Origin: Octopus sinensis | Lineage: Eukaryota | Reading direction: 5' to 3' | DNA length: 64,000 nucleotides | Assembly (NCBI RefSeq): GCF_006345805.1 | Contig: NW_021834672.1 | Coordinates: 3,693-67,692 of the forward strand | Shown: in pieces, positions 3,190 to 56,790 of the stretch | Layout of the letters: every line of letters begins with the position of its first letter | How positions within the stretch are numbered: position 1 is the stretch's first letter | The notes under the pieces: generated by a model | The model's database searches: none | What the model saw: the letters and a program-made list of their open reading frames with translations, nothing else | Told to the model about the DNA's origin: nothing | Made by a program: the position numbers and the translations under genes

Positions 3190-3752
3190 ACAATAAAAAT
3201 GCCCTGATGCAGTACCAGGCAGTGGCCCTCATGGCTTCTGATCTTAACTGATTGGAAGTGTTATCATGTACATTGTTTGTCTTGGATAAAAGATGGGCTA
3301 CAGCAAATATTCTGCTCAATACCACAGATTTGCTTGTAGTTGTTTGGCCTTAACCAGTTGAGCATGTCCCTTAGTGGCTGACGATATGTGCATCTCTGAT
3401 CACGAGCAGAAGTAGTGGGGGAGCATCATGGCCATGTGTTGAGAGGGATTCTTTGGGGTTTGAATAATTCACCTCTGGAAACATAGGTGTTTCGTTCAAC
3501 ATCCTAAAGCAACCCTTATTCAGGGACCTTTTGAGCGGGATGGACTACTCAACCTGAAGAAAATTCTAACTGGGCTCCACCTGCAAGGTCATGTGCTGTT
3601 TATCTTGATATGAGATCACCATGTCGCGCACATATGGTTGTGATGCATGTGCCTGGTGTACCTTTATCAAACGGGTAGTCATGATGGGTATATTGGGCTT
3701 CGTATATTTTACCCCAGTGTCACTTTGATGGCATGAACTGCTCTCTCACACA
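3190..3752 (+). mobile_element. Unclassified ~560-bp non-coding element embedded in (TAA)n
   Basis: Complex sequence bounded on both sides by AAT repeats; no recognisable ORF or tRNA head. Confidence 0.5.
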
Positions 3753-8730: not shown

Positions 8731-9152
8731 CAAGGAGTATTTAGAATCTTGCACATAGTAACATGTATCTTCACATTTCGTTTCATGGACAGTTCGGTGG
8801 CGACTAAAGCGAGAACCCTGTTGAGTTCGCTCCTCGGAAGGACTTGAGGTAGCTCAACAAACTAAACCTTACAGCTGGCAAAGAGCTGAAACGTAGCTAT
8901 CATCGCCCCTCGTGGGACGGTGTCGAAGAAATATCAGATTGGGAAACTGGCGCAAGACAATGATCTTTTAATGATTGTAAGCCGTTTGAATTAATTAATT
9001 ATAAACACGTAACTGAGTGAAGCGAATCTTCTTAGTGACAAGTAATATGGCTTTTGCTCTTCCAGATCTGTAGCTCACTCATCATTCATAAGGTAAATTC
9101 TCATCGTTCACAGGGTAAGCTTTGCAATGGATAATAGTTTTTTTTTTCCTTT

Positions 9153-9410
9153 ATATGTATTTGCATTGGGACCCCTTTCATCGAAAACCGGTGATTGTCG
9201 TGCGCTGATGACGGGTCAATACCCAGAAACTCGAGTCCGTGCGTATCACGTAGGTTGACGATGGGAAGGATGGCTTCCCTTTGCAAATACCGATAGGACA
9301 CAGAAAGTGTGTCAATATCCAGCTGGAGAAGATGTTCTCCTGGGGCTACAAGCTACAGTAACATCCACCCTTAGTGGTTAGCCATATTTAGATGGCAAAT
9401 ATACTTCACA
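9153..9410 (+). mobile_element. Hammerhead-bearing structured element, copy 1 (retrozyme- or Penelope-LTR-like)
   Basis: HHR at 9199-9243 followed by four hairpins; homologous to 35755-36079(-). Candidate 11-bp TSD TTTTTTCCTTT at 9142-9152 and 9411-9421. Confidence 0.7.
9199..9243 (+). ncRNA. Minimal type I hammerhead ribozyme
   Basis: cgtgcg-CTGATGA-c-gggt(caat)accc-a-GAAA-ctcgagt-C-cgtgcg: intact core, stem II, palindromic stem III ACTCGAGT, GUC site (predicted cleavage after 9237). Confidence 0.85.
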
Positions 9411-9998
9411 TTTTTTCCTTTGTTATTGTTTTGTGTATTATCGAAGCACTTGACGCGGTGTGGTATAGAGGGTTCCTCCATAATCTGACCTCTTATGGTA
9501 TATATATATTGTAGAGTCTTTTCTACCATCAAATCATTTCTTATGGCAAAGAAGAATGAAAAATATCCCAAACACTCAGCTTTCTGACATTTGTGAAATT
9601 AATAGTGTCATGCTCCGGTGATCTAACCAATGACCGACGCCTTTTTCTTTCGTATATAAAAAAAAACTTTACCTGAGAAAGTAATAAGATAATTTATCAT
9701 ATTTCCTGATGATACTGCGTTTTACAGTCGCAAGAAATTCATTTAGTTCTAAGTGCACATATTTTCAGTTAACGCTTCCTGGATCAATTTAGTTTCTTCT
9801 CTCACCTCACCACAAGCATGAATTTTCTGACCTCCTTCCTATTTCGCTGATTATGCTTGCTTTGAAAGGAAAAAACCTGAGGTTTTAAGTTCACGCCTGA
9901 TTTGAGATAGGACATTTAAATTGCTTACGTTCACAAAGCAGCATCTAGAACGATGAACTCGTTTTATCATTCGAAACGTTCGTAACACTTGATGCTCT

Positions 9999-13439: not shown

Positions 13440-14430
13440 TAGTTCCACACACCTGGAATAGTTCTCCCCATTCATTTGACCTGAAGTACCATTGGCCTCG
13501 AGAGATAGCGATGATGCTTAATGTATGGATACTGTGTTATTTACTGCGTGGATGTGCATTGAAAAAACGCGATAAGGCAGGCAATATGATAGGTCAGATA
13601 GAGTTGATAAGGCGGCGAGCTGGCAGAAACGTTAGGACGCCGGGCGAAATGCGTAGCCGTATTTCGTCTGCCGTTACGTTCTGAGTTCAAATTCCGCCGA
13701 GGTCGACTTTGCCTTCCATCCTTTCGGGGTCGATAAATTAAGTACCAGTAACGCACTGGGGGCGATGTAAACGACTTAATACCTATGTCTGTCCTTGTTT
13801 GTCCCTTCTGTGTTTAGCCCTTTGTGGGTAATAAAGAAATAGGTATTTCGGCTGCCGTTACGTTCTGAGTTCAAATTCCGCCGAGGTTGACTTTGCCTTT
13901 CATCCTTTCGGGGTCGATAAATTAAGTATCAGTTACGCATTGGGGTCGATGTATTCAACTTAATCCCTTTGTCTGTCCTTCTTTGTCCCCTCTACGTTTA
14001 GCCCCTTGTGGGCAATAAAGAAATAAGGTTCAATAGAGTTGAGCTTGACGGTGATGAAGATATTTCGAGTATCCCAATGTCGGTCTAGGATGCGTGCAAA
14101 GGATAAAATTAACTGATGATGAGAGTTAAAGATTGCGAAAGATTTTAGTTTCCGTTCCGATGGCATCAGTTTCGGAAGAAGAGGGCCAAGAATAGTTGTA
14201 TCTGAATGGAGATATATATCTTCAATGAAGAAGAGATGTGGTCAAAGAATTGTTAGTAATCGGAGAGGTGTGAAGAGCAGAGAATAAACAAATGCTTTTG
14301 GAGAAGTGGGCAGAAAGTGTTTGAGGAGAATTAACTGAAGATCTGTTTCTAAAATCTCAGATGAAAGATAAGCCAAACTTATTCTCACCTAGAGAGTGGA
14401 GCCGAGATATGGCAGATATAACTTTTCAAA
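13440..14430 (-). pseudogene. Possible decayed Penelope-like element (RT thumb/linker before GIY-YIG)
   Basis: Minus reads HFLPTSPKAFVYSLLF, RILDRHWDTRNIF and FQCTS..YPYI loosely fit Penelope motifs. Interrupted by a SINE. Confidence 0.35.
13609..14029 (+). mobile_element. SINE family A (two-unit copy)
   Basis: Head plus duplicated body and tail. TSD ATAGAGTTGA at 13598-13607 and 14033-14042. Confidence 0.9.
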
Positions 14431-27284: not shown

Positions 27285-28046
27285 ACAGCGAACTCCCATA
27301 ATCGTTAACAAGCTGGATAAAATGCTTAATGGTATTTCCTCCAGTTTTGCGTTCTAAGTTCAAATCCGCCGAGGTCGACTTTGCCTTTCATCTTTTCGGG
27401 GTCGATTAAATAAGTATCAGTTACGCACTGGGGTCGATGTAATCGACTTAATACCTATGTCTGTCCTTGTTTGTCCCCTCTATGTTTAGCCCCTTGTGGG
27501 TAGTAAAGAAATAGGTATTTCCTCCAGCTTTGCATTCTAAGTTTAAATTCTGCTGAGGTCGACTTTGCCTTTCATCTTTTCGGGGTCGATGAAATAAGCA
27601 CCAGGGAAACACTGGGGTCAATGTAATCGACTAGTCCCCTTCCTCGAAATTTCAGGCCTTGAGCCTATACTAGAAAGGATCATTATTATTATTGAATCGG
27701 CGAATTGCACACCGAACGAAATGCTAAGCAGTATTTCGTCTGTCGCTACGTTCTGAGTTCAAATTCTGCCGAGGTCGACTTTGCCTTTTATCCTTTCGGG
27801 AACGATAAAATAAGTACCAGTTACGCACTGAGGTCGATATAATCGACTTAATCCGTTTGTCTGTCCTTGTTTGTCCTCTTTGTGTTTAGCTCCTTGTGGA
27901 TAGTAAAGAAATAAGTATTTCGTCTGTCGCTACGCTCTGAGTTCAAATTCCGCCGAGGTCGACTTAGCCTTTTATCCTTTCGGTATCGATAAAATAAGTA
28001 CCAGTAAAGCAGTGGGATTGATATAATCGACTAGTCCCCCAGCTTG
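27285..28046 (+). mobile_element. Two consecutive two-unit family A SINE composites
   Basis: Each runs head-body-tail1-body-tail2; junctions are AAAGAAATA(G/A)GTATTTC. Confidence 0.88.
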
Positions 28047-35078: not shown

Positions 35079-35754
35079 TCTTTCTCTCCTTCTCTCTTCC
35101 TCTCCCTCCCTCTCTCTTACGCTTGTCTCCTCGCTATTTATATTTACCACACTCTCTCTCACGCCTTCTCTGTATATGCATATCTCTCACACATGCTGCT
35201 CCCCTCTCTCTTTCTCTCTCTCTCTCTCGCTCTCTCTCCTCTCTCTGCTTCTCTCTCACATTGCTCCCTTATCGTTCTCTCTCTCTCTCTTGATCTATCA
35301 ATTTTCTCTTCGTTATACATAATTTCTTTCGTTAGAAGCTACAACTTTGTCGTTGTAGCTTCTAATGTTTTGGCTTTTATTTTGTGAGAGATTTCTCTCA
35401 CGCAGAAAATGTCAGCTTCCAAATCCTGTTTTCTGATTGGGTAAAAATGATCAAACTTTAAAATTCTGTCACATTTTTCGAAATTTTTTCTGGAATCATA
35501 AAATCGGATATAGCGTGAAAAATACCTCAATATAACTAATTTGAAACTTTTCACTTCGTTTTCAAAATCTATGACAGTAACAAAAATGATTCCCTCTCCC
35601 AATTTGTATTTCTATGCTTTTTATACTTTGCTACTGTAAACTTTCTCCTTCTGTCAGAGGCGTAGCCAGGTTCTAAAGTAAGGGAGAGTGACCACATAAA
35701 AAAAGGCGCCAAACAATTTTTAATTAGAAATATTGAATTTCTAAATGTCTCAAA

Positions 35755-36079
35755 GAGACATGAGCGATGGTGGAGCGATAGAGTGGTTGTATACTGTCAA
35801 CATAACGTGACAGTCCCGTAAGGGAATTACACTACCGCTGTTTAGCCCTAGGAAGCATCGACGCTTCCTGTCGGCTTTGACACATTTCCTGTGTCCTTAT
35901 ATTTGCAAAGGGGAGGCAAGCACCCCCACCAGCTAGGATTCACACCTGAGAACATGCATGTTTCTGGGTCTTTACCCGTCATCAGCCCAGGATAGTGAAC
36001 CTGCTAGTTGAGATGCCTGTCTAGCCTTCGCAATATATATATATATATATTTACAGTGAAATCTATTCACTGATCACCG
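35755..36079 (-). mobile_element. Hammerhead-bearing structured element, copy 2
   Basis: Homologous to 9153-9410. Flanked by a perfect 34-bp direct repeat at 35721-35754 and 36080-36113. Confidence 0.8.
35945..35991 (-). ncRNA. Minimal type I hammerhead ribozyme
   Basis: Minus: cctggg-CTGATGA-c-gggt(aaag)accc-a-GAAA-catgcatgt-T-ctcagg. Palindromic stem III ACATGCATGT; GUU site. Confidence 0.85.
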
Positions 36080-36132
36080 TAATTAGAAATATTGAATTTC
36101 TAAATGTCTCAAATTCGTTATCTTATATTACG

Positions 36133-47616: not shown

Positions 47617-47910
47617 TTTATTTACTGCCCATGGGCATATGGTGTAGTGGTTAAGAGTGCGGGCTACTAACCCCATGATTTCGAGTTCGATTCCAGGCAG
47701 TGACCTAAATAATAAAAATAATAATAATAAGAAGAAGAAGAAGAAGAATAACATCGAAAAATACCTTAGGTTCGAAATTTCCCCCCAAGACACCTTATGA
47801 AGGCTGGAGGGTATATCAGCCGAAACGTTGTGCTAACAACAAACAAGATGAGGACAAATATCCGTCAAATGTAAATAGTGTACATAATTCCTCATCGCTT
47901 AAATATAGAA
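47617..47910 (+). mobile_element. tRNA-headed element carrying a hammerhead motif
   Basis: A box TGGTGTAGTGG, B box GAGTTCGATTCC, (AAT)(AAG)n linker, HHR motif at 47790-47833. 13-bp TSD CAGTAAGATTGAC at 47604-47616 and 47911-47923. Confidence 0.8.
47790..47833 (+). ncRNA. Minimal hammerhead motif (one core substitution)
   Basis: cac-CTTATGA-a-ggctg(gagggtatat)cagcc-GAAA-cgt-T-gtg. Confidence 0.7.
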
Positions 47911-53359: not shown

Positions 53360-54792
53360 TTAGCTGTTCCTGGAGATAGAGGAAAGACATTATTGATCAG
53401 CCAGCTCTTTGCCAAGGTGAGACAGAAGAAGATTGCTCTGGATGTTACATCTGGAATTGCAGCCACACTCCTAACAGGTAGGAGAACAGCCCTTTCAACA
53501 TTCAAACTGCCTCTGGACCTGATCCAAAATGAATCTCCATTGTGCAACATATCGAAGTATACACTACAAGACTTCAGAAACAATAAGAAGATCATGGGTG
53601 GTGTCACCCTCCTCATGGCTGGTGACTTCAGGCAAACTCTACCTGTCAATCCCAGAGGAACATAGGCAGATGAGCTGAGAGTTTGCATCATGTCCTCATA
53701 TACCTGGAAACATGTCAAGCAGTTTACTCTGGAAACTAACATGTGGGTTCGCATTCATGGTGCCCCACTAGCTGCATATTCTCCAAGAAGTTACTTGACA
53801 CTGGAAATGGAAAACTTCCACAGGATCCAGAAGATAGTCGGCACCACCTCCCATGTAGCAATATCACTGCCTCTCTTGAAGAATTGAGGAGCAGGGTCTT
53901 CCCAAACATTGCCACAAACTACAAAAGTCACATGTGGCTATGTGAAAGAACACTTCTAGCACCAAGGAATGACGTTGTAGACCAGATGAATCTAAATTTG
54001 TTGTCACAGCTTCCAGGACTTCAATGTTCATACAGATCAATTGACTCTGTCCCTGATCAAGAACAGGCAACGCATTGCCCAGTGGAGATCCTTAATTCAC
54101 TTCAACCACCAAGATTTCTGCCACACATTCTGATCGTGAAAACAGGTGCTTCCGTAATGCTGTTAAGATACTTTGACGCAACCAGACTCTGCAATAGAAC
54201 ATGGTTGCTTGTTAAAACAGCCATGCCTCGTGTGTTGCAAGCAACAATAATTACAGCCAACATGATGTGTGAGAATGTCTTCATTCCAAGTATCCCTCTC
54301 ATCTCAAATTATCTTCCCTTTCATTTCAAGCGACTGCAGTTTCCTGTCAAACTGAGCTTTGCAATTTCTATCAACAAAGCACAAGGTCATTCTCTATGCT
54401 TCTCACATAGTCAGCTGTATGTTGGATGTTCCAGAGTTGGAGATGAAAAGAAATTCTACACTCTCAGTGATGGCAAGACAGAAAACATAGTATATGAAGA
54501 ATCACTTACATGAATAATATGTGCATGTAATATACAGAAGTGTAAAACCAATTAGTGTTAAATGTAAGTATTACTTACTGAGAAATACATTAATCTTACA
54601 CTACAAGCAATGAATACTATGTTAAGGCTATGGGTTTATAACCTAAGTGAAACTGGGTCCTTCTGCTTGTATTTGTATATATACATATATATATAAGTTC
54701 AGCAAAATTTAGATTCAGATGAATATGGTACTTAAGTCAAAGGCACCAGAATTTTGTATGGTATTATCCATATAAATCCATGGAGTGGTTAC

Positions 54793-54938
54793 AATCAAAA
54801 TAAGCAACAATTATATCCGAGGTAATGTGGTACGATCGTTTCATGCTACTTCATTTTAATAAAAGTGTTTAATAAAATGAAGTAGCATGAAACGATCGTA
54901 CCACATTACCTCGGATATACTTGTTGCTTATTTTGATT
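54793..54938. repeat. Near-perfect hairpin (71-bp arms, 4-nt loop)
   Basis: 54793-54863 and 54868-54938 are reverse complements with two mismatches. Confidence 0.95.
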
Positions 54939-55877: not shown

Positions 55878-56790
55878 GCTGGCGCTCCGTCGGTTACGAC
55901 GACGAGGGTTCAAGTTGATCCGATCAGCAAAACAGCCTGCTCAAGAAATTAATATGCAAGTGTTTGAGCATTCCACGGATGCATGTACCCTTAACTTAGT
56001 TCTCAGGGAGATTCAGCGTGACACAGAGTATGACAAGGCTGACCCTTCTTTAATTACAGGTACAATTCATTATCCTTTCTACTATAGGCACAAGACCTGA
56101 AATTGGGGTGAGGGGGATAGTCGATTACATCGACCCCAGTACTCAACTGGTACTTAATTTATCGACCCCGAGAGGATGAAAGGTAAAGTCGACCTCGATG
56201 GAATCTGAACTCTGAACGTAGCGGCATACGAAATACCTATTTCTTTACTACCCACAAGGGGCTAAACACAGAGAGAACAAACAAGCACAGACATAGGTAT
56301 TAAGTCGATTACATCGGCCCCAGTGCGTAACTGGTACTTATTCAATCAACTCCGAAAGGATCAAAGGCAAAGTCGACCTAGGCGGAATTTGAACTCAGAA
56401 CATAACGGCAGACGAAATACCTATTTCTTTACTACCCACAAGGGGCTAAACACAGAAGAGACAAACAAGGACAGACAGACGGATTAAGTCGATTAGATCG
56501 ACTCCAGAGCGTAACTGGTACTTAATTTATCGACCCCGAAAGGATGAAAGGCAAAGTCGACCTCGGCGGAATTTGAACTCAGAACGTAACGGCAGACGAA
56601 ATACGGCTACGCATTTCGCCCGGCATGCTAGCGATTCTGCCAGCTCGCCGCCTTAGGTACAATTCATTATCGCCAGCTAAGTGGACCGAATCAAGGTATA
56701 AAATAAAATGTCTTGCTCAAGGAGACAACGCGCTGCCAAGAATCGAACTCGCGATTGTGAGCCAAATAGCCCAACCACAAGGCCACGCTC
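55878..56790 (-). mobile_element. SINE family D split by a three-unit family A SINE (56075-56654, -)
   Basis: 17-bp TSD AGGTACAATTCATTATC at 56058-56074 and 56655-56671; family D tRNA-like head at 56720-56790. Confidence 0.85.

Follow-up and report, generated by a model that had tools for sequence, protein, structure and literature searches.

Two dispersed copies of a putative non-LTR retrozyme superfamily in Octopus sinensis and their Penelope-like insertion pattern

Introduction

Metazoan non-LTR retrozymes have been described as non-coding tandem repeats of 170-400 nt with a GC content below 50%, each unit carrying one type I hammerhead ribozyme (HHR) and being present in thousands of copies (Cervera & de la Pena 2020, PMC7229834). 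They are without LTR, PBS or PPT, their predicted circles are highly self-paired, target-site duplications (TSDs) where present exceed 4 bp, and Penelope-like elements co-exist with them (PMC7229834). Among them are mussel repeats of 350-390 nt and axolotl families of 330/350 nt, and for retrozymes of this class expression, cleavage and circles have been demonstrated (Cervera & de la Pena 2020, PMC7229834). A more recent study of 31 vertebrates, three insects and one anthozoan reported HHR monomers, dimers and multimers and proposed mobilisation by Penelope-like elements, with the Xenopus retrozymes showing sequence kinship to pseudo-LTRs (pLTRs) (Li, Clavereau & Pollet 2026, bioRxiv 10.64898/2026.07.22.740005). 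The insertions of Penelope-like elements are marked by 5' truncation, partial tandems, an inverted 5' copy, an optional tail and microsatellite targets, and the EN+ elements with a CX2-5CxxC linker (Neptune/Nematis) combine these marks with a HHR near the end (Craig et al. 2021, bioRxiv 10.1101/2021.04.23.441226). The canonical metazoan type I HHR, with a helix I of 6 bp, a helix II of 4 bp and a helix III of 2-3 bp closed by a palindromic loop, is known to require a dimer (Cervera & de la Pena 2014, PMC4209133).

Here a stretch of 64,000 nucleotides (the window), positions 3,693 to 67,692 of contig NW_021834672.1, was analysed together with the 2.72 Gb genome. The window holds two copies of a superfamily whose unit is 353-357 nt long, non-coding and furnished with a type I HHR. 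In the properties read from the genome (HHR, tandem units, absence of coding capacity, low GC content with a self-paired fold) the superfamily agrees with the described metazoan non-LTR retrozymes and is assigned to that class. The likeness to the retrozymes of PMC7229834 extends to unit size, copy number, the lack of LTR, PBS and PPT, the TSD and the co-existing Penelope-like elements. It differs from them in that one multi-hairpin fold is kept across lineages down to 54% identity and in that the 3' ends cluster in two windows fixed with respect to the cut, a mapping absent from the accessible part of that paper; expression, cleavage and circles were demonstrated there and are predictions for the present unit. 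The plant LTR retrozymes, defined by type III HHRs within LTRs, PBS/PPT and a 4-bp TSD, are unlike this unit, which is type I, tandem and, in copy 1, flanked by an 11-nt TSD. It is equally distinct from an autonomous Penelope-like element, in which an RT + GIY-YIG ORF lies between repeats, the units here being contiguous.

The Two Window Copies

All motifs named in the original prediction were found in place in both copies. A scan of both strands of the window for the hammerhead core gave eight loose matches, and in two of these, at 9205(+) and 35985(-), the common helix II is accompanied by stems I and III that match. When relatives of both window copies were used to build a covariance model for the hairpins downstream, the model matched the window exactly twice, at copy 1 and copy 2 (135.7 and 112.7 bits). 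Searched against Rfam, the entire window returned solely sub-threshold, microsatellite-driven miRNA matches among the matches listed (150 of 297), and its repeat listing is dominated by microsatellites. The two copies and their ends are as follows.

9153..9410 (+), copy 1, lineage A1 monomer, 5'-truncated, 0.73 unit
9142..9152 (+), target-site duplication of copy 1, left copy, 11 nt
9411..9421 (+), target-site duplication of copy 1, right copy, 11 nt
35721..36113 (-), copy 2, lineage B, partial tandem, 1.1 units
36080..36113 (-), 34-nt direct repeat of copy 2, 5' copy, unit sequence and not a TSD
35721..35754 (-), 34-nt direct repeat of copy 2, 3' copy (tail)

Copy 1 ends 173 nt downstream of its predicted cut, at the commonest 3' end of the superfamily, and copy 2 has the 'tail' form of 3' end about 231 nt downstream of its predicted cut. 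Both copies had been described as flanked by direct repeats, which in copy 1 are an 11-nt TSD; copy 2 spans 1.1 units, so its 34-nt direct repeat is the overlap of the unit in a partial tandem and not a TSD. Likewise copy 2 had been located correctly but bounded too narrowly, at 35755-36079 instead of 35721-36113. Its 5' junction interrupts a neighbouring repeat that has no continuation on the other side. The description of both copies as non-coding stands, there being no RT or endonuclease ORF in the unit or abutting its 5' end in 126 insertions, and both are likely to be dead-end insertions.

Several other elements were seen in the window. Another hammerhead-like family, short and abundant, differs in its helix II and has a helix III that is palindromic and minimal; it is represented at 47772-47870 (+), where the hammerhead-like core is broken, and at L101, L152, L154 and L215 elsewhere. 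The long near-perfect inverted repeat at 54811-54920, which has a sub-threshold plant miRNA match, is probably a small DNA-transposon-like hairpin, and the open stretch of 257 residues at 53740-54510 (+) is one that we take to resemble a Helitron/PIF1 helicase fragment. A dispersed repeat with an internal period of ~184 nt lies at 13608-14025, 27362-28039 and 56100-56660, in both orientations and at 83-91% identity.

The Hammerhead Motif

The HHR core and its three stems are present in both window copies.

9199..9243 (+), type I HHR of copy 1, stem I 9199-9204 with 9238-9243, core CTGATGA from 9205
9229-9236 (+), stem III/loop 3 of copy 1, 8 nt, self-complementary, predicted cut after 9237
35945..35991 (-), type I HHR of copy 2, stem I 35991-35986 with 35950-35945, core from 35985
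Copy 2 (-), stem III/loop 3, 10-nt palindrome, GUU triplet, predicted cut 3' of 35951

The motif had been called minimal, a term that has to be replaced; with a helix I of 6 bp, a helix II of 4 bp and a helix III of 2-3 bp plus a 4-nt palindromic loop it is the canonical metazoan type I form (PMC4209133), and the absent or 1-bp helix III and short helix I that define the minimal hammerhead of Penelope-like elements (min-HHR) were not found in it. The palindromic nature of stem III was confirmed across lineages. Stem III/loop 3 is self-complementary in 33 of 47 motifs of lineage A, 20 of 24 of A3 and 31 of 36 of B (84 of 107 distinct motifs in total), every state that occurs at least three times is self-complementary, and the loop-3 palindrome is retained through changes that require two substitutions (TCGA, TGCA, CCGG). 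The self-duplex of stem III is predicted at -10.7 and -13.3 kcal/mol, with the lone hairpin predicted not to form.

The tertiary core pair 3/8 was counted in 93 copies chosen by the downstream motif without reference to the HHR, 46 of which have a recognisable core; the pair is C-G in 36, U·G in five, U-A in four and C-A in one. U3-A8 is a reported natural covariation in Schistosoma elements (Cervera & de la Pena 2014, PMC4209133). The U3 forms, nine in number, fall within one supported clade with a single exception and so represent one evolutionary path, not many. Together, the kept loop-3 palindrome and the 3-8 covariation imply selection on cleavage in the source lineages.

At the base of helix II the window copies and their lineages have C and A, the C following A9 and the A preceding G12, in place of the usual G-C that is present in lineage A4. 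The C/A site can be read in two ways, as a mismatch of C and A at 10.1/11.1 or as the extra nucleotide of Penelope-type motifs with one further nucleotide added. Across the superfamily the helix II base occurs as C·A, U·U, A-U and G-C and the 3-8 pair as C-G, U·G and U-A, such that natural hammerhead core variants are supplied within a single scaffold. The cut triplet of copy 2 is GUU rather than GUC (in its family GUC counts 26 vs 3), and in the monomer of copy 1 stem II is predicted to be mispaired (probability 0.08). Against the Rfam model Hammerhead_1 neither window copy scores at E<=10, and the sister lineage A4 reaches 32.2 bits (E 5.9e-6) in three successive units, the gathering score being 34.

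Copy Number, Lineages and Tandem Arrays

The superfamily is far more abundant than chance would allow. The exact HHR core pattern has 392 matches genome-wide against 0 for the reversed control, and a motif common to both window copies downstream of the HHR has 3,942 exact matches against 0 for its control, a figure that is a lower bound on copies; lineages without the exact common motif may be missed. Copy 1 as query defined lineage A (4,348 first-look candidates, the best 40 scored at 92-98% identity) and copy 2 lineage B (2,658 first-look candidates, the best 40 scored at 87-97%). The two homologous lineages align over the entire unit at about 54% identity, with 85% and 90% within lineages. 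The first of the common-motif matches also revealed lineages beyond A and B. A tree was computed from 55 copies whose core is recognisable; midpoint-rooted and with its bootstrap incompletely settled, it shows four starred clades and a grade that contains copy 1.

Lineage A4 is the youngest seen, its 13 copies having a mean pairwise identity of 97%, and its 26-nt core has 683 exact matches, many of them in runs of 2-6 at about 353-nt spacing. Tandem copies had been proposed as a check on the family, and arrays of 2-6 units were found in relatives, the window copies themselves amounting to 0.73 and 1.1 units. The periods of the tandem loci are 356 nt and 354 nt. Arrays of about 5-6 units from lineages A3 and A4 were observed at G000:C9:31617790-31619763, C1:148255725-148258126 and C1:105634464-105636603, and these are candidate source loci.

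Fold and Covariation of the Unit

Natural cut-to-cut monomers folded as circles gave a long rod with the HHR at its tip and a branched hairpin cluster, with z values of -3.0 for a mutated A copy and -7.2 for B, 61-66% of nucleotides paired and a GC content of 0.44-0.45. The corresponding features of the window copies are listed below.

9158..9289 (+), long rod of copy 1, basal stem P1a 9158-9165 with 9282-9289, HHR at the tip, pair probability 1.0
9297..9396 (+), hairpin cluster of copy 1, P2 9297-9313, P3 9316-9348, P5 9367-9378, P6 9381-9396
9355-9362 (+), P4 5' strand of copy 1, pairing partner missing from this copy
35794..35895 (-), hairpin cluster of copy 2, P2 35895-35879, P3b 35868-35851, P6 35813-35794
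36054..36072 (-), upstream hairpin P0 of copy 2, also in lineage A, truncated away in copy 1

This fold changes the layout first proposed. The sequences 'ATAT.TATTTGC' and 'CCCTTTGCAAATA', listed there as separate motifs, are actually the two arms of one stem (probability 1.0 in copy 1 and 0.79 in copy 2), and the local 'hairpin 1' has a probability of 0.0 in copy 1. Common helices beyond those first listed are P0 upstream, P5 around CCCTTA and the long-range P4. The octamer at 9159-9166 is the 5' arm of P1a in copy 1 and is not kept in other lineages. An octamer serving as an snRNA-type promoter is known from newt satellite 2; as a family feature here it was rejected because most lineages are without it.

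Pairing was counted on a structure set by hand, because the RNAalifold consensus folds were distorted by gapped ends. The alignments comprised 32 of 43 long copies for A, window copy 1 among them, and 30 of 33 for B. In these, 94.5% of 2,454 cells (A) and 95.3% of 2,681 cells (B) are paired, against 33-48% when the partners are slid, although the structure was set from these same sequences and the cells count inherited changes many times and not independently. Double changes at the level of lineages were seen in stem I (17 GC/9 AU in A, 14 GC/11 AU in B), P3b (22 AU/8 GC), P4 (11 AU/5 GC), P6 (18 UA/11 CG) and P1a in B (17 CG/9 UA), and those within families are mostly transitions. The claim that the stems change yet keep pairing is supported by the comparison of A with B, in a register chosen by hand, in which 41 pairs are unchanged, 13 altered on both sides, three altered on one side yet paired and one broken, such that 16 of the 17 changed pairs are still paired. 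The covarying pairs are few; in A, 10 of 82 pairs covary, a number equally high in 20 of 500 shuffles, whereas in B the 5 of 93 pairs do not exceed the shuffles (161 of 500 as high). A three-lineage alignment of P2-P6 is 94.6% paired, with double changes in 5 of 23 pairs.

Insertion Pattern and Template

Insertion marks were counted on 88 sense runs selected by the downstream (3') motif alone. The 3' ends lie 165-182 nt downstream of the cut in 33 of the 88 and 210-235 nt downstream in 32, so that 65 fall in two windows, and both are seen again, at about 173 and 218-231 nt, when A and B are mapped separately, in a sample biased by query length. A (TA)n tract is found at the end of 57 of 88 runs compared with 5.7% of flank windows, an inverted piece adjoins 48 of 88 (head-to-head pairs counted twice), and 32 of 88 are longer than one unit. 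Copies that are 5'-truncated or inverted are frequent, the 3' ends being fixed and the 5' ends variable. With partial tandems, an inverted 5' copy, an optional tail and a microsatellite target the unit displays the hallmarks of Penelope-like elements (Craig et al. 2021, bioRxiv 10.1101/2021.04.23.441226), and to judge from these junctions the insertions look Penelope-like.

The predicted cut site is read through in 67 of 88 runs, and 9 of 88 have a 5' end within about 5 nt of it, roughly 2.5 times the local density. When copies were selected by the post-cut half, 30 of 30 reached at least 9 nt upstream of the cut, five of them stopping 9-20 nt upstream. Five apparent 5' ends exactly at the cut were rejected as alignment artefacts, the sequence continuing upstream. 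Since the ends lie far from the cut and most runs read through it, the template would mostly have been a circle or an uncut multimer, while the nine breaks near the cut make some cleaved linear templates possible. The first 3' window lies just 3' of P6 at an equal distance in lineages only 54% identical, which suggests that the hairpin cluster sets the start of copying; on this positional evidence the P2-P6 cluster is likely to be the signal that positions the start of reverse transcription.

Neighbouring repeats are often cut at the non-microsatellite junction. Out of 300 blocks, 27 have a neighbour that is not resumed, some of which may be natural repeat ends, vs eight rows in which it is resumed, and window copy 2 is among the unresumed. 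This suggests that target-site deletion is common.

Search for a Parent or Partner Element

No sense ORF abuts the 5' end of the unit in 126 insertions, and in 314 element blocks only two direct fusions were found, both to a truncated ORF. The original prediction had set against itself the case in which all copies are terminal repeats of Penelope ORFs, and the 126 insertions without an abutting sense ORF speak against that case. No tRNA gene was found in seven loci. An ORF beside the copy at L018, L022, L036, L051 and L248 was discarded in each case as antisense, distant or a plain insertion.

Starting from fragments in the flanks, four autonomous Penelope-like families with RT + GIY-YIG domains were sampled, at 30 loci per family and in additional longer stretches, and the unit gave no BLAST or covariance-model match to any of the four except for inserted copies. 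In contrast to the pLTR kinship of the Xenopus retrozymes (Li et al. 2026, bioRxiv 10.64898/2026.07.22.740005), the link to Penelope is here provided by insertion marks. Two of the families, which are related and share a CxxxxCxxC linker, terminate at (TA)n and have a ~30-nt tail that is optional; a third, young family ends on (TA)n and the fourth on (ATT)n. A role of the linker finger in recognising (TA)n has been suggested (Craig et al. 2021, bioRxiv 10.1101/2021.04.23.441226). Three of the families have hammerhead-like motifs at their ends (read by eye) that are unrelated to the unit. The HHR of the unit, with its 6-bp helix I, lies at least 173 nt from the 3' end, compared with about 45-85 nt in the local autonomous families, and the unit differs from Neptune/Nematis-type elements in having no RT or GIY-YIG ORF and a tail of about 45-57 nt vs 30-40 (Craig et al. 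2021). For one resident retrotransposon protein, those relatives that carry a name stem from bivalve-symbiont assemblies, in loose agreement with a molluscan host, and the repeats give the impression of an octopod cephalopod.

Two very young families were observed among the autonomous elements. That of L181-L184 (G000:C5:61955500-61969000 and others) is Penelope-like, with 97-99.8% identity, open frames of 814-947 aa and a tandem period of ~4.29 kb, and carries at its end, about 45 nt from the (TA)n junction, a type I hammerhead (by eye) with an unusually long helix II. That of L444-L476 is Neptune/Nematis-type, with 99% identity, 2,748 candidates and a 784-aa open frame in L475; its 3' UTR contains a long mixed trinucleotide tract, and it has a U3-A8 hammerhead variant with a palindromic helix III (by eye).

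In the two fusions, at L288 and L413, a truncated sense linker-type ORF is joined without spacer, a short piece of the unit in inverted orientation forms the link, and (TA)n bounds the entire fusion. The fusions contain tandem retrozyme units (L288, L413/L473) and the join is mid-ORF, not via the 3' UTR. Their parts are of similar age, being 97.8% and 99% identical to their nearest relatives. Such fusions are what template switching would leave, or target deletion, and offer a weak hint at most; as target-site deletion is common, both can be explained without strain and are weakened as evidence for a partner. The leading candidate for the partner, unproven and at about even odds, is the group of young Neptune/Nematis-type elements resident here.

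Discussion

Both stretches are very probably dispersed copies of high-copy metazoan non-LTR retrozymes, likely self-cleaving as dimers and likely circularising, with a Penelope-like element as the likely agent of their reverse transcription into (TA)n sites. The central idea of the original prediction, a structure-selected, retrozyme-like retroelement family with a dimer-type hammerhead, is upheld by the genome-wide abundance of copies, their arrays in tandem, the compensatory changes and insertion marks of the Penelope type. In the proposed cycle, tandem source loci would be transcribed and adjacent HHRs would pair through the palindromic stem III to form a double hammerhead that releases unit-length RNA. 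A host ligase would then close the RNA circle, in which a lone stem III of 2-3 bp would be too weak for re-cutting. The GIY-YIG/RT protein of a Penelope-like element may next nick a (TA)n tract, with copying beginning just 3' of the hairpin cluster, and the enzyme would cross the ligated (or uncut) junction, maybe for several rounds, giving copies of 0.3 to several units with an inverted 5' piece and an optional tail. The unit is covered piecewise by contigs from three runs presumed to be RNA and from a further run whose kind is unknown; such contigs carry neither strand, end nor level, and the circle junction is seamless, so that they speak neither for nor against expression.

The strongest competitor is that uncut multimeric or read-through RNAs are the template of retrotransposition, with a weak or inactive HHR in the window lineages and no circle involved. 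Reading through of the cut site fits an uncut linear RNA equally with a circle, a C/A pair closes the foot of helix II in the two window lineages, and predicted ribozymes often fail in vitro, with one of nine predicted retrozyme dimers cleaved (Li et al. 2026, bioRxiv 10.64898/2026.07.22.740005). Set against this, the palindromic loop 3 is kept via two-substitution changes, the 3-8 pair covaries, and in mussel, repeats of equal size whose loops are non-standard do cleave and build up as circles (Cervera & de la Pena 2020, PMC7229834), so that this explanation is regarded as rather unlikely.

Considerably less probable is that the copies are solo pseudo-LTRs, 5'-truncated from an unsampled autonomous Penelope-like element, and that the unit has no life cycle of its own. 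The insertion marks are indeed those of Penelope-like elements, the autonomous families sampled were four only, and in Xenopus 24 of 57 retrozyme families have matches among known elements, which lie almost always at the ends of Penelope (Li et al. 2026, bioRxiv 10.64898/2026.07.22.740005). Yet the units stand head to tail up to 5-6 times without an intervening ORF, 126 insertions are without a sense ORF at the 5' end, and the two ORF fusions in 314 blocks join mid-ORF via an inverted piece of the unit, not at the 3' UTR. An ancient pLTR origin of the unit is compatible with these observations.

Compensatory changes in inverted repeats can arise through DNA template switching, and most within-family double changes are transitions, but a DNA-level satellite or MITE-like repeat with hairpins from palindrome-forming repair and a chance ribozyme look-alike is extremely improbable given the polar structure, the fixed 3' and variable 5' ends, the lack of terminal inverted repeats, the dispersal across many contigs, the match of A4 to the Rfam hammerhead and the covariation at a tertiary core pair outside any DNA palindrome.

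With the retrozyme reading preferred, much of what had been implied to be new is already published, namely the class itself, the mollusc unit of 350-390 nt, the palindromic loop 3 and the link to Penelope. No description of a cephalopod retrozyme or of a retrozyme-Penelope chimera was found in the openly accessible literature, though the supplement of PMC7229834 may list further invertebrates. The text and part of the supplements of an earlier HHR survey name no cephalopod HHR (Cervera & de la Pena 2014, PMC4209133), and the main text of an octopus repeat annotation (2026) does not mention ribozyme, retrozyme or hammerhead.

A bolder reading, tentative and on balance doubtful, is that of a long-lived retrozyme radiation in which the hairpin cluster would be a structure-encoded loading signal fixing the start of a Penelope-type RT ~173 nt past the cut. 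The enzyme would come from young Neptune/Nematis-type elements and would have been caught in the single-event chimeras L288 and L413, in which it rolled round the retrozyme and switched to its own RNA. If true, the partner enzyme of a retrozyme and its cis-signal would be named from genomic evidence, without sequence kinship between parasite and host element. As there are thousands of copies, natural covariation, a mapped start site, a young lineage (A4) with a canonical ribozyme and young autonomous candidates, partner and cis-signal are directly testable. The superfamily is of value for testing what enzyme mobilises animal retrozymes, a point so far published as a proposal, and what that enzyme recognises.
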